64,000 nucleotides of DNA, taken from positions 1,478-65,477 of the forward strand of contig WFYG01000005.1 of assembly GCA_015490195.1 (NCBI GenBank), given 5' to 3'. Below, one piece after another: positions 4,997-64,000 of this stretch; position 1 is the stretch's first letter; each line of letters opens with the position of its first letter. This DNA comes from Thermovibrio sp. GTDB lineage: Bacteria > Aquificota > Aquificia > Desulfurobacteriales > Desulfurobacteriaceae. Made by a program: the position numbers and the translations under genes. The notes under the pieces are model-generated. The model was not told the origin of the DNA, did not search any database, and saw only the letters and a list, made by a program, of their open reading frames with translations.

Positions 4997-6193
4997 ATGA
5001 GGAAAGCCCTGTTTCTTCTCACTTCCCTGATGGTTGCTACATCTGCCTCTCAGGCTCAAACGGTTTCAAACGAAGAGATACTCCAGAAACTCCAACAGCT
5101 TGAGAAAAAGGTTCAGGAGCTTGAAAAAGAGAACAGGGAGCTAAAGAAACTCCTCTACAGAAGAACTGCCGTTGTTCCTTTAAGGAAGAGAACAGAAAAG
5201 GTTAAAGTTGGGGGAAGGGTTCTTTTCAGGTTTTCCCAAACGCAGGACATAGATGAGAACGGCGGAAAGTCCATATTTGGAGATTATGGAAACGGGTTTG
5301 AGGTTAAGAAGGCTAGGCTTCACGTAAAGGGAGAGCTTAACGATAATATCAGTTATGCCATTCAGATAAAGGCAGATAAGGGAAGCCAGGTTCAGCTCTG
5401 GGATGCTTACGTCAAATACTCTTTTGACTCCATTCCACTTTCGGTAAAGATGGGGCAGTTTAAGACTCCTGTCTCTATGTCTTACTTAAAGAGTGGAACA
5501 GAGCTCTGGCTTCCTGAAAGGCCTGTTGCCGTTAACGAGATTGCTCCTGTGTGGAGAGAGATTGGAGTTTCAGCTACCTATAAGCTCTTTAAGGGAGTTA
5601 AGTTAACTGCCGGCGTGTTTAATGGTGAGGGGTGGAGCTCCTCCGAAAACTACAACAGGGACAAGAAATACCTCTACACCCTGGCCTTAGATGCAACTCC
5701 TATCAACAATGAGGATTTAACCTGGCGCTTTAGATTAGGCGGAGAGTTTGGAACGGACGACTCTTCCAAGATGATTTATACAAAATACGGAGCTGCTTCT
5801 GTTAAAAGACACCTGATTGACGTTGAAACAGCACTCAAGTTTAAGCCCTACAACCTCTCCCTTGAGGCTGGATACCTCTACGACAACCCGACAGACGGAA
5901 AAGACAGCTCTGGAAAAGACGTATCACTTGGAAACGCCAAGGGCTACTACGCACAGGTCAACTACGGTCTCCCATTCTTTCCGAAAGTTCACCTTGTTGG
6001 CCGCTACTCCTGGTTGGATCCAAACGACGATATTAACGATAAGTACGACGTTAACTACACAACCATTGGCTTCTACTACCTCTTAAACGGCTGGCAGGCA
6101 GCAGTCAGATCTTCGTACACCTGGGCTAATGAAAGGCACGGTAAAGAGATTGACAACAACGTGTTTGTAACAGAGTTCCAGCTTCTCTTTTAA
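4997..6193 (+). CDS. Outer-membrane porin, probably phosphate-selective porin O/P family
   Basis: It has the signal peptide MRKALFLLTSLMVATSASQAQ, an N-terminal coiled coil, alternating beta-strand pattern and a C-terminal aromatic residue (..FQLLF). The ATG at 4997 with a GGAGGAG SD is preferred over 4937. Confidence 0.6.
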   Translation: MRKALFLLTSLMVATSASQAQTVSNEEILQKLQQLEKKVQELEKENRELKKLLYRRTAVVPLRKRTEKVKVGGRVLFRFSQTQDIDENGGKSIFGDYGNGFEVKKARLHVKGELNDNISYAIQIKADKGSQVQLWDAYVKYSFDSIPLSVKMGQFKTPVSMSYLKSGTELWLPERPVAVNEIAPVWREIGVSATYKLFKGVKLTAGVFNGEGWSSSENYNRDKKYLYTLALDATPINNEDLTWRFRLGGEFGTDDSSKMIYTKYGAASVKRHLIDVETALKFKPYNLSLEAGYLYDNPTDGKDSSGKDVSLGNAKGYYAQVNYGLPFFPKVHLVGRYSWLDPNDDINDKYDVNYTTIGFYYLLNGWQAAVRSSYTWANERHGKEIDNNVFVTEFQLLF

Positions 6194-56364: not shown

Positions 56365-57327
56365 GTGAACAGCTTTTTGGGGAAAAGGTTGAAAGGGTTC
56401 CTGTTTATAACAACACCAGGAACTTCAATTTCCAGAAAAGGGAATGTTCTGATAATTGATATAAAAGAGGAGAGAAAAAGAATTCCAATCGGGATTATCA
56501 AGCATGTTTTTCTATTCGGAAACGTAAACATAACTATTCCTGCGATTAGACTTCTGTCGTCCCGCGGGAAATTTATTTTTCTCCTCAACAGGTACGGCCG
56601 GCTTGTTAGTATAGTTTGCCCTGAATTCTTTGGAAGCGACAACAACCTGAGAGTGGAACAGTATAAGGCCTTTACAGATGGAGAGACAAAAACCAGAATT
56701 ACAAAAGAGCTCTTGAAAAGGAAACTTGAAGTTCTGGAAGTAGTAGTTAACAATTTATACGCATCCCGTGGTTTAAGGGCAGAGAATTTTGAAGATTGGA
56801 AAGACAAAATACTGATATCTCTAAATTCTGCAGATAGTAATCAGAGCCTTTTGGGTATTGATGGAAATATAAGTAAATTTCTTTACGATAAGCTTTCCAA
56901 ATTTAACGAAAGTCCTTTTTCCTTTGAAAAGAGAGATTACTATCCACCTCCTGATCCTGTTAATGCCCTGCTTAGCCTGAGTTTTTCCATTTTCTATTCT
57001 CTAATGCATCCCGTAGTTTTGGCCTTTGGGTTTGATCCCTATTTGGGATTTTTCCACGTAAAGAGAGGAAAACACGCTGCCCTTTGTTCCGACGTTATGG
57101 AAATTGTAAGGCCAAGGCTTGCTGAATTTGTCTTTAACACTCTTAACGATGGTTTCTTTTCTGAAGAAGACTTTTCTACCGATAAATCCGGCTTTTACCT
57201 GAAAAACAAAGCACTTAAAACCTTTTTAAAACTCTATACAGACGTAGTCATTCACGGCAAAGAGAATCTGTTTATTGATTCTGTTTTAGACTTCCTCAGC
57301 TGGCTTAAAAAGGAAGTTAAAAGATGA
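56365..57327 (+). CDS. cas1: CRISPR-associated endonuclease Cas1 (module 1)
   Basis: YYPPPDPVNALLSLSFSIFYSL...GFDPYLGFFHVKRGKHAALCSDVMEIVRP is the canonical Cas1 C-terminal catalytic domain. The start is uncertain (the GTG at 56365 or a TTG roughly 20-25 nt downstream). Confidence 0.9.
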   Translation: MNSFLGKRLKGFLFITTPGTSISRKGNVLIIDIKEERKRIPIGIIKHVFLFGNVNITIPAIRLLSSRGKFIFLLNRYGRLVSIVCPEFFGSDNNLRVEQYKAFTDGETKTRITKELLKRKLEVLEVVVNNLYASRGLRAENFEDWKDKILISLNSADSNQSLLGIDGNISKFLYDKLSKFNESPFSFEKRDYYPPPDPVNALLSLSFSIFYSLMHPVVLAFGFDPYLGFFHVKRGKHAALCSDVMEIVRPRLAEFVFNTLNDGFFSEEDFSTDKSGFYLKNKALKTFLKLYTDVVIHGKENLFIDSVLDFLSWLKKEVKR

Positions 57328-57602
57328 GGTATTTGGTAACTTACGATATCTGCGACGATAACAGACGAGAAAAAGTGATAAAACTTCTAAACGATTGTGG
57401 TAAAAGAGTTCAGTTCAGCTGTTTTGAAATAGATATTTCCTCTCAGGAGCTGGAATCTCTGCTTTCCCGACTAAGTAAGATCATAGATAAAGACGAAGAC
57501 AAAATTTACATTTTTCCTTTATCAAAGTTTGCTGTTCCATTTGTGAGAAAGTTAGGAAAGAGAGATACTGAAGGTAATAGTAGTTTGAGTTTGATATTAT
57601 GA
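57324..57602 (+). CDS. cas2: CRISPR-associated endoribonuclease Cas2 (module 1, first copy)
   Basis: MRYLVTYDICDDNRREKVIKLLNDCGKRVQFSCFEIDIS....KIYIFPLS matches Cas2. An ATGA overlap with the cas1 stop links the two genes. Confidence 0.85.
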   Translation: MRYLVTYDICDDNRREKVIKLLNDCGKRVQFSCFEIDISSQELESLLSRLSKIIDKDEDKIYIFPLSKFAVPFVRKLGKRDTEGNSSLSLIL

Positions 57603-57917
57603 GTTTACCAAAGCGAATTAACAGATTTGTTGTTATTTACGATATTTGTGTTCTTGATGATTCCTACGAGGAGCGTAGAAGTTCTGCTAAGAGAAGAGCA
57701 AAAGTTATGAGAGTTTTATATGACTATGGAATAAGAACACAATATAGTGTCTTTGAGATTGAACTAAGAGGCAAGCAGTATTCTGATAACCAGGATAAAG
57801 CAAATAATAAGAGAAACTTCGGATAAGGTTTACATATATCCCCTTGATAGCAGAAGCGTTAAGAAAACTGTAAGATTAGGAAAAACTGCAGAAATAATTT
57901 TAGATTTCTTCCTTTGA
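57599..57917 (+). pseudogene. cas2: Second Cas2-like gene of module 1, interrupted by a frameshift near 57767-57775
   Basis: Frame 1 reads RFVVIYDICVLDD...RVLYDYGIRTQYSVFEIELRG and then runs out of frame to a stop at 57826. The +1 frame continues ASSILITRIKQIIRETSDKVYIYPLDSRSVKKTVRLGK..* (stop at 57915-57917), collinear with the second Cas2 domain of 61583..62218. Confidence 0.6.
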
Positions 57918-58140
57918 GGAAATTGTGTATAATATATGCGAATGCACTTGGTCTTTGAAAGTTGAATAGGAGTTGTAGCAAGGGCTTTTATGGTATTCTA
58001 AAACACCAATATTTAAACTTGTGATTCTCAAGGCTTTAGAAACTGTATTGAGGAAAACCTTGTAACGCAGGGTATTTTAGTTTTATATATAAATCTCAAG
58101 TTTTGAGAGACTTGTATTTCAATGAATTTATTTTTTCGCT

Positions 58141-58334
58141 GTTGAAATGCCCTAAAAAGTGGAAGGGATTGCGACCATAAGGGCTTTAGCTCTTTTCAGC
58201 TCCGCCTCCAATTTCTCTATCGTTGAAATGCCCTAAAAAGTGGAAGGGATTGCGACGCAACTTCTCCTAAGTTTCTTGCCGCTCCTGTGTTAAAGTCAAG
58301 TTGAAATGCCCTAAAAAGTGGAAGGGATTGTGGC
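58141..58334 (+). CRISPR. CRISPR mini-array 1: three 35-nt repeats and two spacers (46 and 43 nt)
   Basis: GTTGAAATGCCCTAAAAAGTGGAAGGGATTGCGAC occurs at 58141-58175 and 58222-58256. The terminal repeat at 58300-58334 is degenerate at its 3' end (..GATTGTGGC). An AT-rich leader lies upstream. Confidence 0.85.
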
Positions 58335-58525
58335 AAATAGAGTTTTACTTTTGCTCTGTTAAGAGTTTTTTGATATAGGTTTAGATTTTATTGGATTTCC
58401 TTTTCCAGTTTTGGCAGGTGTTTTAATTTGTTTCCCGGCTAATACTTCCGTATTCATATATGGGGAAATTGTTGAAAGCAGTAATCTTCCACCGGGATAT
58501 GTTTAGATGTTTCTGATTTGATTCT

Positions 58526-58873
58526 TTAAAATTGTTCTATACTTTTCTTTAACTTATGTATTTCTTTTTCCAGATTGTCCAGCTCTTTTTCCAATATGAC
58601 CCAGATTATGTTAACATCAATATCAAAATACTTATGAGCTGTTATGTCTCTAAATCCGGCAATTTTTCACCAGGGGATAGAGGGATATTCTTCTTTTATC
58701 CATTCGGGGATATGTTTAACAGCTTCTCCTATGTTCTGAAGTGCATATATAACTGCATATTGGGTTTTTGTGTCTTCAAGAAAATCTTTATAGCTATATC
58801 CTTTGATAAATTCCCAGATTAAGGAGATTTTGTATAGAATATCGTCTATGTAGTGAGTTCATTCTCTATGCAT
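58526..58873 (-). pseudogene. DUF86/HEPN toxin gene with two in-frame TGA codons
   Basis: MHRE*THYIDDILYKISLIWEFIKGYSYKDFLEDTKTQYAVIYALQNIGEAVKHIPEWIKEEYPSIPW*KIAGFRDITAHKYFDIDVNIIWVILEKELDNLEKEIHKLKKSIEQF is the DUF86 pattern with the RDITAH Rx4H motif. The TGA codons are at 58861-58859 and 58669-58667. The ATG overlaps the MNT stop (ATGCATAG). Confidence 0.65.
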
Positions 58874-59177
58874 AAATTACCTCTTTCAGTATTAATATTC
58901 CTACTTTCCCTTTAAGGGTTTTTTTGGATACAAGGTCAACTTTCCTGCCAAAAATGTCTTCAAGGAATACTTTGAGGCCAAGAAAATCAAGGTTTTCAAG
59001 ATTGTTTATGTCGTAATCAATTAGTATGTCTATGTCGCTATCTGGTCTCTGTTCGTTCCTTACAACAGAGCCGAAGATTCCTATTTCTTTTATCCCAAAC
59101 TCTCTTTGAAGATAAGGTTTAAGTTCTCTGAGTTTCTGGAGGACTTCCTCTTTGCTTATTTTTGTTAACTGTGCCAT
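58866..59177 (-). CDS. Minimal nucleotidyltransferase (MNT-type antitoxin partner of HEPN)
   Basis: GIFGSVVRNEQRPDSDIDILIDY is the GS..(n)DxD nucleotidyltransferase motif; 103 aa. Confidence 0.8.
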   Translation of the reverse strand: MAQLTKISKEEVLQKLRELKPYLQREFGIKEIGIFGSVVRNEQRPDSDIDILIDYDINNLENLDFLGLKVFLEDIFGRKVDLVSKKTLKGKVGILILKEVIYA

Positions 59178-59265: not shown

Positions 59266-60270
59266 CTATCTGAACGGAATTCTGGCAGGTTTTCTGGAGG
59301 AGAGTGCTTTTTGGAGCTCCTCCGGAAAGAGCCTGTATGTTTTTATTACGTTTATCACTTCCCGTGCGCCCCGCTGTAGAACTCCTTTCTCTTTAAAGTA
59401 GAGGTAGAGTGTTTCCAACTGGTCTTCTGTGAGCTTGAAACCGGATTCGTAGAGAGCTCTCTCCATTATCACTAAAAACTCCTCTCTTGTAAGGGGAAAG
59501 AATGGAACAACTGTCTGAACCCTGCCCAGGAATTCTGGCGGAAACTTTCCCTCAAGGAGCCTCTTTGTCTCTAAAAGAGCTTCAACCGGAGAGAGTTTAG
59601 AGAGTTCTCTAACCTCTTCCCTTAATGCATTTGAGGTTAGAACTATTACTGAGTTGTACATCGGCAGGAGCTCCCCCGTTGTTGCAAACTGAATGACTCC
59701 CTCGTCCATAACCGAAAGGAAGGCCGTTCTAAAGTCCGGATGTGCCTTTTCAAATTCGTCTAAAAGGAGCAGGAGATTTCCTCTGCTCTCTGCAACTTTT
59801 TGAATTAGAGGGGGAACGGAGTCTGAACCGATGTAGCCCCGGGGAGCTCCAAAGTAGCTTGAAACCTCATACCTATCCTGAATCCTCTCGCAGTTGATTC
59901 TGAAGAACTGATAGCCGGCAGTTGAGAGCGTTCTTCCGAGAACTTTTACAGATTCCGTTTTCCCCGTTCCAGTTTCTCCTACAAAGAGCATAACTAACGG
60001 CTTAGTTTTAAAAGGCCTTGCTAAAAACTCCCCAACCGTTCTGCTTATAATTCTTTTTGCGGTCTCCTGACCAACTATGTAGTAGTTTAAATCGCTATAA
60101 ATTACCCGTGTGTTCTTTTCTGCAAGTTTAACAGCCCTTTTCTCCATCTTTTTCCGTTTTCTCCTCTCCAAAAACCTTGATAGGAATCCAAACTTTGGTG
60201 GAAAAGCTATGAAGAGAAGAATAAGTAAAAGAGCACTGTAAAGAACAATGTCTTCCAAGCTCAACTTCAC
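59266..60270 (-). CDS. Membrane-anchored single-module AAA+ ATPase of the Clp/Hsp100 D2 type
   Basis: An N-terminal TM helix (IVLYSALLLILLFIAFPP) is followed by VGQETAKRII, Walker A FVGETGTGKTE, Walker B LLLLDEFEKAHP, VLTSN, and a D2-small-domain-like FLGRVQTVVPFFPLTREEF. Confidence 0.72.
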   Translation of the reverse strand: MKLSLEDIVLYSALLLILLFIAFPPKFGFLSRFLERRKRKKMEKRAVKLAEKNTRVIYSDLNYYIVGQETAKRIISRTVGEFLARPFKTKPLVMLFVGETGTGKTESVKVLGRTLSTAGYQFFRINCERIQDRYEVSSYFGAPRGYIGSDSVPPLIQKVAESRGNLLLLLDEFEKAHPDFRTAFLSVMDEGVIQFATTGELLPMYNSVIVLTSNALREEVRELSKLSPVEALLETKRLLEGKFPPEFLGRVQTVVPFFPLTREEFLVIMERALYESGFKLTEDQLETLYLYFKEKGVLQRGAREVINVIKTYRLFPEELQKALSSRKPARIPFR

Positions 60271-60482
60271 CTCCAGTGAACGGCTCCTACTGCTGTTATT
60301 GAAGAAGGGAGCTCCCTCTCTCCGTGAAGAGCCGAGGCCGTTGGCCCTGAGCCGGAGAGAGGTTTTCCGTGGACTGATGCCACGGCTTTTGTTTTTGTTC
60401 TTCTGTGAAGGCTTTCGGCCTCTTTTCCCTTAAAGGTTAAGAGAGCTCTGTGGATAGCGGCAGCTTTAAAGAGGTTCATCAC
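60267..60482 (-). CDS. Hypothetical 71-aa protein, translationally coupled to the AAA+ ATPase
   Basis: It overlaps the ATPase start through GTGA. It is itself preceded by a 25-aa mini-ORF (60479-60556, strong GGAGGGAG SD). It contains no recognisable motif. Confidence 0.3.
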   Translation of the reverse strand: MMNLFKAAAIHRALLTFKGKEAESLHRRTKTKAVASVHGKPLSGSGPTASALHGERELPSSITAVGAVHWR

Positions 60483-60644: not shown

Positions 60645-61586
60645 GTGTTTTTCCGTTTTATAGAATTGACAAAAAGAGTTGGGGAAAAGGGGTTGAGAAG
60701 ACCGATATACGTTGCAACTTACGGAGCTGAAGTAGGCAAATCTGGAAATTCCTTAACTGTTAAAACAGAAGAGGGGATAAAGAGAATTCCTTTAGGGGTT
60801 ATAGAGTATTTAGTTCTCTTTCCGGGAGTTGAGATTACAGTTCCTGCACTCAGGTTCCTCTCAAGCCATAAAAGGCCGGTTTTCCTCGTTAATCAGTTTG
60901 GAAAAGTCTCATCTGTTGTTCTGCCCGAGGTTGTAGGGAGCTCCACCGCCACTTTAAGAGCAAAACAGTATGAAAAGTTTGCAGATGCCGAATTTTCGGT
61001 GAATATGATAAGGGAGCTCCTTAACCTCAAACTCTCAAAACTTGAAGAAATAACGGGTTCTTCTTACCCTGAAATCAGAAAAAAGATAAAGTCTGCCAAA
61101 AAACCTGAAGTTCTTTTAGGAATAGACGGCAGATTAGGGAAAATCCTCTACGACTTCATTTCAAGGAAAAACAGAAGCCCTTTCCCGTTTAAAGGGAGAG
61201 AATACTACCCGCCGCCAGATCCGATAAACGCCGTTTTAAGCCTTACATTTACAGTTTTCTACTCACTTTTGACGGCGGCAGTCATTTCCACCGGGTTAGA
61301 CCCTTATTTAGGCTTTTTCCACATCCGTCGGGGAGTCCACGCCGCCCTCTCGTCAGACATCATAGAGCCCATAAGACCACAAATAGCCGACTTCGTTATA
61401 GAACTATTTAACAGCGGATTTTTTGAAGAAAAAGACTTCCTGCAAACCACAAAAGGCGTAAAAGTTGAAAGTTCTAAACTTAAATCTTTACTGAGATTAA
61501 TTGTTAACTTTGAAATAGACAGAAAAATATCTGAAACTTCTCTGGAATTCTTGCAGTTCCTAAAAGATTCTCTGAGGAAGCCGTGA
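60645..61586 (+). CDS. cas1: CRISPR-associated endonuclease Cas1 (module 2)
   Basis: YYPPPDPINAVLSLTFTVFYSL...GLDPYLGFFHIRRGVHAALSSDIIEPIRP is collinear with the module 1 Cas1. The start is uncertain (the GTG at 60645 or the TTG at 60695). Confidence 0.9.
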   Translation: MFFRFIELTKRVGEKGLRRPIYVATYGAEVGKSGNSLTVKTEEGIKRIPLGVIEYLVLFPGVEITVPALRFLSSHKRPVFLVNQFGKVSSVVLPEVVGSSTATLRAKQYEKFADAEFSVNMIRELLNLKLSKLEEITGSSYPEIRKKIKSAKKPEVLLGIDGRLGKILYDFISRKNRSPFPFKGREYYPPPDPINAVLSLTFTVFYSLLTAAVISTGLDPYLGFFHIRRGVHAALSSDIIEPIRPQIADFVIELFNSGFFEEKDFLQTTKGVKVESSKLKSLLRLIVNFEIDRKISETSLEFLQFLKDSLRKP

Positions 61587-62218
61587 ACTTTGTTATTACT
61601 TACGACATAGAAGACGACAGAAGAAGACTTGAAGTTGCTGAATATTTACTAAGATACGGAGAGCGTGTCCAATACAGCTGTTTTGAGGTTTCCATTTTTC
61701 CTGAAACTCTTGTTGAACTTGTGTCATTTAACCTGAGAAGATTGGCTGTTGGAGAGTTTGACAGGGTTTTTCTTTATCCAATCAGTAAATTTTCAGGAAA
61801 ATATATTATCCGATTTTCCCTTGGTATTAGGGATGCCGAAAAAAGTTTTAAGGAGCTATTAGAACTCTTCTTTAACCAAAAATCCAGACTTCTCCGGTTT
61901 AAATACCTGAGCTTAATAGAAGATGATTTGGATTTGCAGATAAAAATCGGCAGATTCAAGAAATACCTGATTATTTACGATTTGGAAGATGGCTATGTAA
62001 GGAACCGATTTTCTAAGTTTTTATCTCAGTTCGGCTTCAGAGCTCAGTTAAGTGTTTTTGAAATAGAGGCTGTTCCATCGGCTTTAACCAGAATAATTCT
62101 TGAAGCCAGAAAGGTTTCCCGCTACGGAAAAGTTTATATTTACCCTTTAGACGAAAGGAGTTATAAGAGAATAATTCGGATTGGTAAACCTTATTCGCCT
62201 ATTGACGGAATCATCTGA
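61583..62218 (+). CDS. cas2: Tandem Cas2-Cas2 fusion protein (two Cas2 domains in one 211-aa polypeptide)
   Basis: Domain 1 (aa 1-85) reads FVITYDIEDDRRRLEVAEYLLRYGERVQYSCFEVSIF...RVFLYPIS. Domain 2 (aa 126-211) reads KKYLIIYDLEDGYVRNRFSKFLSQFGFRAQLSVFEIEAV...GKVYIYPLDE. An ATGA-type overlap links it to cas1. Confidence 0.8.
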   Translation: MNFVITYDIEDDRRRLEVAEYLLRYGERVQYSCFEVSIFPETLVELVSFNLRRLAVGEFDRVFLYPISKFSGKYIIRFSLGIRDAEKSFKELLELFFNQKSRLLRFKYLSLIEDDLDLQIKIGRFKKYLIIYDLEDGYVRNRFSKFLSQFGFRAQLSVFEIEAVPSALTRIILEARKVSRYGKVYIYPLDERSYKRIIRIGKPYSPIDGII

Positions 62219-62379
62219 TTTTTGGTAAACTATTCTTGGTAGAGTTCCTTGAAAACTGAATAGGGAATCCCTTTAAAAGGGCAAATCTGCCGAGAATGTA
62301 AAAGCCCTTGAAACACAAGGGTATTACTTTTCGGTTAAAAATGAATACCAGTTATTTCAAAGGTTTACGATAGGTGACT

Positions 62380-62488
62380 GTTGAAATGCCCTGAAAAAGT
62401 GAAGGGATTGCGACTATGATTCTTTTAGATACTCTGTTATTTCATTTACTTTTGTTGAAATGCCCTGAAAAAGTGAAGGGATTGCAGT
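62380..62488 (+). CRISPR. CRISPR mini-array 2: two 35-nt repeats and one 39-nt spacer
   Basis: GTTGAAATGCCCTGAAAAAGTGAAGGGATTGCGAC lies at 62380-62414. The second repeat at 62454-62488 is degenerate at its 3' end (..GATTGCAGT). The repeat is a close variant of the array 1 repeat. Confidence 0.7.
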
Positions 62489-62663: not shown

Positions 62664-62933
62664 TTGAAAGATATGCTGAAAGAAATTACAAAGATTGACC
62701 TACTGAAAGAGGTTCAGGAATGTATTAACAAGGATAAAGAACTAAAGGGTCATATAAAGCTTGATCTGATAGATTTAGATACAGGAGCAGATTTTAACTT
62801 CTTGATACTTTCAGATAAACCGTTCAGTTGGAATATCTGGGATAAGGTTCAAGAAGTTGTTTATAACTGCTTGGAGCAATACGATCCTTATATTACTTTA
62901 CACTTTGAATGGGAATATATATCTGAAAAATAA
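62664..62933 (+). CDS. Hypothetical 89-aa protein
   Basis: The ORF is intact (TTG at 62664 or ATG at 62673) but I recognise no motif. The upstream 62490-62660 holds only start-less ORF fragments. Confidence 0.3.
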   Translation: MKDMLKEITKIDLLKEVQECINKDKELKGHIKLDLIDLDTGADFNFLILSDKPFSWNIWDKVQEVVYNCLEQYDPYITLHFEWEYISEK

Positions 62934-62986: not shown

Positions 62987-64000
62987 TTATATGTTGGGAA
63001 TTTCTCCGGCGTTGAAAACGGGTCTGTAATCTTTTAGCTCTTTAAAGTAGCTCCAGACCTCTATGTCCCAGTAGTTTCCAACGGCCATTCCAAGAGCAAA
63101 AGCTATCGGGTTTGGAACGCTCATTATCAGGTGGAATTTTCTGTATCCTCTGTCGTAAACTCTGTTCATTGCCTCGTAGAGCTCCGCAACAATCTCAGTC
63201 CAGTTTTCGCTTAAAGGAACTCCTCCCTTTAGCTCCGGTGCGTGTATGTAGAAGAAATCTCCGTTGAACTTTTCTGCCAGCTCTTCTCCCTTTCTCCTTG
63301 TTTCGTGTGAGGCAACCTGAAGAGCAACAACTGCCGTGTCCGTCTCTTTTCCCGCTTCAGAAACAATTTCAATGTAGAGGAGCTCCCGCCTCCTCCTCTT
63401 TATCTGCCTGCTGTCTTCTGTAAGGTCTATAACTCTGTGGTATTTCCCGTTTTCAAAGTGGTAGAGTGCAACCGGCAGTTTTCCTGTTCCTATAACTATT
63501 CCAGCGCCAAAAGAGAATGTTATGGGAGTTTTGAGGGCTATGTGCAGTGAAATTGGAAAAGGAATTTTCTCTTTAATTTCTAAAACTCGTTTCTGGAATT
63601 TTTCAAACAAGGGAAGCCAGTTTTCTGAGGGAAGAATTGGCGGAAGCTGAAAGATGAGGAGCTCCTTATCAGCGTATCCCTCAACCGGTTCAAAGTTTAC
63701 AGTTCTGCAGAGGAGCTCAAAGGGTTGCTTTAAACTCTCTTTCTCTCCGGTTCCTATGAACAGAGGAATTTCCGTTTTTTCACCTTTAAGGAAATCTCCC
63801 AACTTCCTGATGTTTCCTTTTCCTATCAGCGTTTTTCCCTGTTTTCTGGCTATCTCTTCTTTTTCTTTCATGTGGTCTGCAGAGAAGTTTTCCCCGTAGA
63901 GCTTTCCTGAAAGTAAAAGGTTTTCGGGGAGCTCCCCGTAGAGAAGTGCATAGGCCAGCGGAGCCTGAAAGGAGTCTCCGCTGAACTCTCTGTCAAAGAA
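62987..64000 (-). CDS. Lon-protease/SAVED fusion protein (CalpL-like); the N-terminus lies beyond the window
   Basis: The frame stays open from 63871 to the window edge and reads FSGDSFQAPLAYALLYGELPENLLLSGKLYGE....MKEKEEIARKQGKTLI, a Lon S16-like Ser...Lys pattern. The C-terminal 290 aa hold two CARF-like half-repeats ending ..KTPITFSFGAGIVIGTG..VALYHF and ..SVPNPIAFALGMAVGNYWDIEVWSYF, as expected for SAVED. Confidence 0.62.
   Translation of the reverse strand, partial: FFDREFSGDSFQAPLAYALLYGELPENLLLSGKLYGENFSADHMKEKEEIARKQGKTLIGKGNIRKLGDFLKGEKTEIPLFIGTGEKESLKQPFELLCRTVNFEPVEGYADKELLIFQLPPILPSENWLPLFEKFQKRVLEIKEKIPFPISLHIALKTPITFSFGAGIVIGTGKLPVALYHFENGKYHRVIDLTEDSRQIKRRRRELLYIEIVSEAGKETDTAVVALQVASHETRRKGEELAEKFNGDFFYIHAPELKGGVPLSENWTEIVAELYEAMNRVYDRGYRKFHLIMSVPNPIAFALGMAVGNYWDIEVWSYFKELKDYRPVFNAGEIPNI

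Follow-up and report, generated by a model that had tools for sequence, protein, structure and literature searches.

To our knowledge, the structurally studied integrases of Cas1 and Cas2 are all centred on a two-fold symmetric homodimer of Cas2. The way in which such a symmetric integrase achieves ordered and oriented integration remains under debate, in particular for type III systems, with neither a protospacer adjacent motif (PAM) nor Cas4. A stretch of 64,000 nucleotides from Thermovibrio sp. (Aquificota; Desulfurobacteriaceae; GenBank assembly GCA_015490195.1, contig WFYG01000005.1, positions 1,478 to 65,477 of the forward strand; hereafter the window) gives this question a concrete form. 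Directly after a cas1 gene lies a single open reading frame (ORF) whose product carries two different Cas2 domains. Is such a fusion a genuine adaptation gene, where did it come from, and what would it do to the symmetry of the integrase? Here we show that the fused gene is real and conserved, trace its likely origin to a pair of adjacent cas2 genes, and argue that it probably supplies both halves of the Cas2 core in one chain.

The first-pass annotation of this locus, made from the DNA sequence alone, named no described CRISPR subtype defined by tandem Cas2 domains. A pair of different Cas2 proteins has in fact been published for the type III-D system of Vibrio vulnificus YJ016, where the adaptation operon encodes a Cas1 fused to a reverse transcriptase (RT-Cas1) together with Cas2A and Cas2B (Gonzalez-Delgado et al. 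2019, PMC6821258). Loss of either Cas2A or Cas2B abolishes spacer acquisition in that species, a Cas2A/Cas2B heterodimer has been proposed, and two cas2 genes are reported to typify RT-CRISPR clade 6 and to be frequent in clade 13 (PMC6821258). This was the only work that we found in the literature on tandem, fused, duplicated or heterodimeric Cas2; our searches of the literature returned no account of a covalent Cas2-Cas2 fusion or of a Cas2 pair with an RT-less Cas1, and nothing on a Cas2 pair in Desulfurobacteriaceae or Desulfurellaceae.

The fused gene and its conservation

The fused gene occupies positions 61583-62218 of the forward strand and appears in the ORF list as 211 codons plus a stop. 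Its GTG start codon overlaps the TGA stop of the preceding cas1 gene in the tetranucleotide GTGA, and a Shine-Dalgarno-like element, GAGGAAG, lies a few bases 5′ of the start. The whole protein matches the Cas2 families PF09827 (89.4 bits, Pfam) and TIGR01573 (77.7 bits, NCBIfam), each over two separate stretches. Scanned alone against PF09827, whose gathering cut-off is 23.8 bits, the N half (residues 1-101) reaches 50.8 bits (E 2e-13) and the C half (residues 102-211) 45.6 bits (E 8e-12). The two Cas2 modules that had been read in this ORF are thus recovered as two non-overlapping significant matches, and neither half depends on the other for its score. Pfam finds no domain but Cas2 in the ORF, with no Cas3 helicase-nuclease, DEDDh exonuclease or Cas1, and structure and sequence searches of the PDB with the fusion protein return Cas2 matches only.

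The N-terminal domain, of the type that we call Cas2a (residues 1-80; 61583-61822), carries the motifs YDIEDD, RVQYSCFE and FLYPIS and is predicted with a local distance difference test score (pLDDT) of 84-90. The C-terminal domain, of Cas2b type (residues 125-211; 61955-62215), carries YDLEDG, RAQLSVFE, VYIYPLD..S and IRIGKPY. The three motifs named by the first-pass annotation therefore occur in both halves, as the pairs VITYDIEDD / LIIYDLEDG, QYSCFEV / QLSVFEI and VFLYPI / VYIYPL, except that the second N-terminal motif ends in DG and not in the DD that had been claimed. The conserved aspartate that ends β1 of each Cas2 domain, D8 and D133 here, is invariant in 12 fused proteins, and the two halves share only 33% identity. 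Between them lies a linker of about 44 amino acids (about residues 81-124; 61823-61954), close to the 40 or so first estimated, which AlphaFold2 predicts as two helices. It ends at an invariant residue, Arg124, which in the alignment matches the N-terminal extension of stand-alone Cas2b proteins (KRI-R-F/Y).

The fusion recurs well beyond the window. A search of 5.8 billion proteins recovered 13 further homologues, namely 12 full-length fused proteins (204-211 amino acids, 39-89% identity) and one partial protein of 153 amino acids (P0004), from sources among which are Thermovibrio sp. and a cultured isolate, Desulfurobacterium pacificum. Neither motif set varies over the 13 fused proteins of the alignment (204-215 amino acids, 39-89% identity), and each half retains dozens of invariant residues even among fused proteins that are just 39-47% identical. 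In about 20 independent loci, some of them from vent metagenomes, the fused gene lies directly after cas1, usually overlapping it; the fused loci examined were L001-L009, L021-L024 and L026-L029, together with L025, which begins inside the fused gene so that cas1 is not visible. The same uninterrupted ORF is present in independent NCBI, ENA, JGI and Logan assemblies, the isolate genome included. Ratios of nonsynonymous to synonymous substitution rates (dN/dS, Nei-Gojobori) against L007, a relative whose fused protein is 89% identical to that of the window, come to 0.08 in the N domain, 0.05 in the C domain and 0.13 in the linker, with 0.08 for the whole gene, and a comparison of L003 with L009 gives 0.07-0.08. 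Because the motifs are conserved, dN/dS is low and the loci are independent, it is very unlikely that the ORF arose in assembly or that one half is decaying: the fusion is confirmed as a real, conserved gene and not an accident of assembly.

It is also rare and phylogenetically narrow, since an exhaustive search of 1.84 billion cluster representatives with a hidden Markov model (HMM) returned three full-length fused clusters (P0001, P0011 and P0015, clustered at 50% identity), the remaining top matches being single-domain proteins of 74-158 amino acids. Among PLSDB plasmids, a tblastn search with the fusion recovered no further fusion or adjacent pair, the matches being to single Cas2 domains and covering at most 45% of the query. 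One further member of the representative library, P0016 (121 amino acids), is made up of the second linker helix and a Cas2b domain, with no Cas2a half, and could be either an intermediate in evolution or a gene that was called too short; a metagenome scan for its genomic locus, which would help to decide between fusion and fission, found none.

The separate cas2a and cas2b genes and the origin of the fusion

About 4 kb upstream of the fusion module the window contains a second adaptation module in which the two Cas2 proteins are encoded separately, in the order cas1 (56365-57327, forward), cas2a, cas2b, leader and an array of three repeats. The cas2a gene (57324-57602, forward; 92 amino acids) matches Pfam Cas2 at 76.6 bits and overlaps both cas1 and cas2b by 4 nt. 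The cas2b gene (57599-57917, forward) is frameshifted near 57775-57785: a 75-amino-acid ORF runs to 57826, and the C-terminal part, KVYIYPLDSRS...LDFFL, continues in the +1 frame to 57917, as a three-frame translation shows. Both pieces match Cas2b. The frameshift site contains no homopolymer run, and the gene is probably either a pseudogene or the product of a sequencing error; an intact orthologue (L011, 5986-6321) is 67% identical to the repaired window sequence. The first-pass annotation, which saw in this region (57324-57917) the same two-Cas2 arrangement as separate genes, was right about the arrangement and partly right about the genes: cas2a is intact and cas2b is frameshifted.

The separate genes recur in related genomes. 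A scan with the Cas2b alignment, covering one genome per species, found eight loci in Desulfurobacteriaceae and in metagenome-assembled genomes of Desulfurellales, and every complete split locus among them has the order cas1-cas2a-cas2b. Orthologues of cas2a sit upstream of cas2b in L010-L013 and L015-L020. A protein search retrieved 71 proteins of Cas2b type, including those of D. atlanticum (two loci), Balnearium lithotrophicum and Desulfurella, whose genes are annotated in the databases just as ‘Cas2’. The 4-nt overlap between the two cas2 genes is found in the window, in L018 (D. atlanticum), in L019 and in L020, which implies coupled and equimolar expression. In the type III-A loci of Desulfurobacteriaceae and Desulfurellaceae, adaptation is usually encoded by the split cas1-cas2a-cas2b cluster. 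The proposal that two Cas2 units form a conserved architecture holds for both forms, with the fusion after cas1 in its roughly 20 loci and the pair present in all complete split loci examined.

The Cas1 proteins of the two modules differ as well. The downstream cas1 (60645-61586, forward; 313 amino acids) matches Pfam Cas_Cas1 at 173 bits and TIGR00287 at 162 bits, and the upstream one (320 amino acids) matches Cas_Cas1 at 205.7 bits. In both window proteins Pfam and NCBIfam find neither an RT nor a Cas4 domain beside Cas_Cas1, and the Cas1 proteins beside fused or split Cas2 in the relatives are of similar size, 296-327 amino acids. The downstream Cas1 is 86% identical to that of L007; the upstream Cas1 is 71% identical to that of L011 and 41.6% identical to its downstream neighbour. 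Fused-type Cas1 proteins in general are 39-86% identical to the downstream Cas1 of the window, and split-type proteins lie nearer the upstream Cas1, on a separate branch that is 35-48% identical to the fused type. Cas1 co-diverges with the fused or split arrangement of Cas2, a pattern that fits a single fusion event.

Which half corresponds to which separate gene can be judged from several comparisons. The N half matches the upstream Cas2a at 62 bits, and its preference for an HMM of split Cas2a amounts to 21-34 bits and is one that ordinary Cas2 proteins share. The C half matches Desulfurellales Cas2b at 65-69 bits as against 41-44 bits for Cas2a, and in BLAST comparisons Cas2b outscores the Cas2a ORFs in six of seven split loci. 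In a neighbour-joining tree (88 columns, 100 bootstraps) the C half groups with stand-alone Cas2b, with which it also has in common the N-terminal extension with its invariant Arg and the YIYPLD..S..IRIG tail. Our best explanation of these similarities is that the fusion derives from the adjacent, translationally coupled cas2a-cas2b pair that accompanies RT-less cas1 in type III-A loci. Cas2a and Cas2b would then be anciently diverged Cas2 paralogues, Cas2a near ordinary Cas2 and Cas2b more derived.

A relative without the second module bears on the history of the window. In L007 the entire upstream module (cas1-cas2a-cas2b and array), together with the neighbouring MNT and HEPN genes described below, is absent between the thioesterase and AAA ATPase genes. 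Either the upstream module was inserted recently and is now decaying, or L007 has lost it.

The integrase core: one chain or two

What, then, would the fused protein do in the integrase? AlphaFold2 models of the window protein contain two domains of β-α-β-β-α-β topology with the additional β5 strand (residues 2-79 and 127-200), joined by two helices (85-98 and 102-122). These linker helices have low pLDDT in the window protein and reach 72-90 in the D. pacificum orthologue; the predicted template modelling score (pTM) is 0.75 for the former and 0.83 for the latter. In Foldseek searches the domains match the solved Cas2 structures 4qr0, 1zpw, 5h1o and 2ivy with probability 1.00 and target-normalised template modelling scores of 0.68-0.75. 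Among solved structures the N half is matched best by 1zpw (TT1823) and the C half by 7kft_B or 3exc, and no solved chain covers both Cas2 domains in either the Foldseek or the PDB sequence search. The high pTM and the confidently predicted linker of D. pacificum suggest one compact body and not two independent domains.

The fusion is probably a functional adaptation gene, and the mechanism that we find most likely is a single-chain Cas2a/Cas2b heterodimer at the core of the integrase. A Cas2a/Cas2b heterodimer would take the place of the central Cas2 dimer in the Cas1(4)-Cas2(2) complex; the fusion would hold both protomers in one chain at a fixed 1:1 stoichiometry, and the resulting Cas1(4):(Cas2a-Cas2b)(1) complex would have an intrinsically asymmetric core. 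We infer the heterodimer, its stoichiometry and any effect of asymmetry on integration because the separate genes co-occur and are coupled, because both halves keep the Cas2 topology and the β1 aspartate, because the linker is under selection, and because of the pTM values. A covalent pseudo-heterodimer is the most economical reading, in agreement with both scores.

Several results weigh against this proposal. Of the five models for the window protein, three are poor (pLDDT 59-63), pTM is an indirect indicator of packing like that of a Cas2 homodimer, and we infer the dimer geometry itself. The correspondence of the halves to the separate genes is less clear-cut than the pairwise scores suggest: the split-A and split-B HMMs give the C halves nearly equal scores, with A-B differences of -1 to +9 bits as against about +20 for generic Cas2. 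In the neighbour-joining tree, the N halves form a clade of their own with no resolved relation to split Cas2a, the clades of fused halves receive weak bootstrap support (38-47%), and the presumed outgroups included members of the Cas2a and Cas2b families, so that tests of monophyly are uninformative. The assignment of the N half to Cas2a and of the C half to Cas2b is accordingly moderately supported by sequence comparison. The arrays of the window are tiny, with one and two spacers, and recent activity there is not evident. Finally, we know of no two-Cas2 system, V. vulnificus included, in which heterodimerisation has been demonstrated biochemically.

The alternative that survives best, though we hold it to be somewhat unlikely, is a symmetric complex of the form Cas1(4):(fusion)(2). 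One domain type, for example Cas2a, would homodimerise between two chains and the other, Cas2b, would be a peripheral accessory that binds DNA or RNA, trims, or docks Cas1 or a host factor, as in Cas2-DEDDh and Cas2/3, and the core would have no intrinsic asymmetry. All natural Cas2 fusions known to us are of this kind: in type I-E Cas2-DEDDh and type I-F Cas2/3 the Cas2 still homodimerises and the added domain is peripheral, and one of the Foldseek matches of our protein is a Cas1-Cas2/3 structure (9p1d). The character of the two domains, Cas2a resembling generic Cas2 and Cas2b being the more derived paralogue, would suit such a division of labour, and the need for both Cas2A and Cas2B in V. 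vulnificus fits it equally well. A purely peripheral Cas2b is harder to reconcile with the full Cas2 topology, including β5, and the conserved β1 aspartate in both domains, or with a pTM that suggests contact between the two domains within a chain. The 1:1 coupling of the separate genes fits a heterodimer, though it fits the symmetric complex too.

If the single-chain heterodimer is correct, it invites a bolder idea. The integrase might be polar, with one Cas1 dimer on the Cas2a face and the other on the Cas2b face, and this polarity might separate leader-side from spacer-side attack and possibly bias spacer orientation in PAM-less, Cas4-less type III-A thermophiles. We regard this as decidedly unlikely, and an effect of the fusion on spacer orientation is speculation. 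Were it true, a polar integrase would be a protein-encoded solution to an orientation problem that is solved elsewhere by PAM processing. The companion proposal that the fusion fixes spacer length is not upheld: spacers vary from 35 to 44 nt beside fused modules (n = 23) and from 32 to 47 nt beside split modules (n = 54), with no difference between the two (Mann-Whitney p = 0.11).

That the fusion is instead decaying or neutral, one half a functionless relic and the other working as an ordinary Cas2, is very improbable. Second cas2 genes can decay, as the frameshifted cas2b upstream illustrates, and the window arrays are very short. Against this stand dN/dS values of 0.05-0.13 over both halves and the linker, which indicate strong purifying selection, the invariant residues of each half in distantly related fused proteins, and the retention of the fusion in three 50%-identity clusters and in an isolate with a 14-repeat array, so that this explanation is largely refuted by the conservation data. 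Least credible of all is an artefact, in which a missed stop or frameshift or a chimeric assembly joined adjacent cas2 genes: a single-base error could fuse a pair such as the overlapping one 4 kb upstream, but the linker is about 23 amino acids longer than a Cas2a tail plus a Cas2b extension and is itself conserved, and the uninterrupted ORF recurs in independent assemblies.

Arrays, neighbouring genes and relation to known systems

Each adaptation module of the window is followed by a leader and a minimal array with a degenerate terminal repeat. The leader of the fusion module (62219-62379, forward) contains the conserved motif TCCTTGAAAACTGAATAGG at 62246-62264, as identified in an alignment of the window, L007, L001 and L011. 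Its array (62380-62488, forward) consists of two 35-nt repeats (GTTGAAATGCCCTGAAAAAGTGAAGGGATTGCGAC) around one spacer of about 38 nt, the second repeat being degenerate at its 3′ end. The upstream array (58141-58335, forward) has three repeats and two spacers (46 and 43 nt), with the leader motif at 57952-57970. Longer arrays of the same repeat family, D1, with 14-45 repeats, occur in D. pacificum and D. atlanticum, and in D. pacificum the 14-repeat array follows the fused gene. Placement beside cas1 and an array is common to all the related loci.

The leader motif, TC(T/C)TTGAAA(G/A)(T/C)TGAATAGG in its general form, lies just 3′ of the cas2 stop codon and about 115-190 nt before the first repeat, and is common to fused-type and split-type modules (window, L001, L007, L011). 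In the native leader-repeat it reads TCYTTGAAAGTTGAATAGG. A second conserved leader block, AAAGCCTTTGTAACACAAGGGTATT, lies nearer the array. These blocks may be anchoring sites for the integrase or a host factor. Two relatives carry an identical spacer more than once at the leader end of the array or close to it, with two copies in L007 (5134-5273) and three in D. atlanticum (L018, 10801-11019). Such duplicates could reflect repeated acquisition of one prespacer, recombination or an effect of assembly.

Downstream of the array, on the reverse strand, the window ends inside a gene for a CalpL-like Lon-SAVED protease (62987-64000, reverse; SAVED domain, with the frame running past the window end). 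The L007 orthologue of this protein (462 amino acids) matches CalpL (7qda) with an E value of 3.3e-27. CalpL-like Lon-SAVED proteases are cyclic-oligoadenylate effectors of type III systems, and the gene marks its surroundings as a type III locus. The gene order in L007 is thioesterase, AAA ATPase, cas1, fused cas2, array, CalpL-like protease and then Cas10/Csm1(HD)-Csm2-RAMPs; the Csm genes, none of which falls inside the window, lie there about 4 kb downstream of the fusion. They also adjoin the split modules in L018 and L019, and the split modules of D. atlanticum and Desulfurella stand directly beside Csm genes, Cas6, Csx3, Card1 and SAVED genes. Because these relatives (L007, L018 and L019) carry the module in Csm loci, the fusion module can be assigned to type III-A systems. 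The suggestion that tandem Cas2 domains might define a CRISPR subtype of their own is not borne out, as in the relatives the module sits in ordinary type III-A (Csm) loci.

Several smaller genes surround the two modules. In the interval 6127-8938 of L007 (reverse) the CalpL-like gene is followed by two genes of 274 and 197 amino acids without a Pfam match; by their size and place they are candidates for CalpT and CalpS, the anti-sigma and sigma partners of CalpL. Between the array and the CalpL-like gene, the window has an 89-amino-acid ORF (62664-62933, forward) with no Pfam match, and L007 has, in the corresponding interval (5483-6098), an ORF of 125 amino acids with a weak HEPN match (20.4 bits, below the cut-off) and one of 87 amino acids. 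Divergent from and upstream of the downstream cas1 are a 334-amino-acid AAA_2/Torsin-like (ClpB-type) ATPase with an N-terminal hydrophobic helix (59266-60270, reverse) and a 71-amino-acid ORF (60267-60482, reverse), a pair that also stands by cas1 in L007 (338 and 70 amino acids). In two reverse-strand intervals between the two adaptation modules (58530-58860 and 58866-59177), an MNT-type nucleotidyltransferase of 103 amino acids (Pfam NTP_transf_2) is followed on that strand by a DUF86/HepT-like HEPN remnant (…KIAGFRDITAHKYF…), broken by an in-frame stop; together they look like a decayed HEPN-MNT toxin-antitoxin pair. An Rfam scan of the window from 55 to 64 kb found nothing meaningful.

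The fused gene matters for several reasons. The genetics of V. vulnificus established a need for two different Cas2 proteins and left their mode of assembly unshown. A Cas2a-Cas2b protein from a thermophile should be stable and easy to express as a single chain of fixed stoichiometry, and the fusion, present in the isolate D. pacificum with an active-looking array, is thus a convenient reagent for direct tests of the heterodimer. It further offers a tractable way to ask whether an asymmetric core matters for the polarity of integration. More generally, the two-Cas2 design is not confined to RT-Cas1 systems and is standard in the type III-A loci of two thermophilic families.

The nearest relatives are the split modules of D. 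atlanticum, Balnearium lithotrophicum, Desulfurella and the upstream part of the window itself, with which the fusion module has in common the repeat family (GTTGAAATGCCC...GGGATTGCGAC), the leader motif, the type III-A context with accessory genes, and corresponding Cas2a and Cas2b motif sets. The two forms differ in that a single gene here replaces two genes with a 4-nt overlap, and in that the split Cas2b of Desulfurobacteriaceae has an insertion of 10-12 amino acids after β1 (DDSxEERRxSxKRR) which the fused C half lacks. Like the canonical Cas2 homodimer (E. coli I-E, 4p6i and 5ds4; I-C, 8d3l; RT-Cas1-Cas2, 7kft), each half has the ferredoxin-like fold and motifs of Cas2, and the locus keeps the cas1-cas2-leader-array layout; unlike that homodimer, built of two identical chains of 80-105 amino acids, it joins two diverged paralogues, 33% identical, by a covalent link. 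Cas2 is covalently joined to a further module also in Cas2/3 (I-F), Cas2-DEDDh (I-E) and Cas1-Cas2 (for example in Thermoproteus), where the partner is a helicase-nuclease, an exonuclease or Cas1, whereas here it is a second Cas2.

The system of V. vulnificus is, by its published description, a clear precedent. Purifying selection on both halves of the fusion would be consistent with a need for both units in acquisition here too. In both, two distinct Cas2 units, each with the β1 aspartate, are encoded beside cas1 in a type III system. The units form one polypeptide here and are the products of two genes there, and a plain 313-amino-acid Cas1 in a type III-A (Csm) context here stands against a Cas1 fused to a reverse transcriptase in a type III-D context there. 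Thus the two-Cas2 arrangement as separate genes, and the heterodimer proposed for it, were already known; what is new is the covalent fusion, the RT-less Cas1 and the type III-A context.

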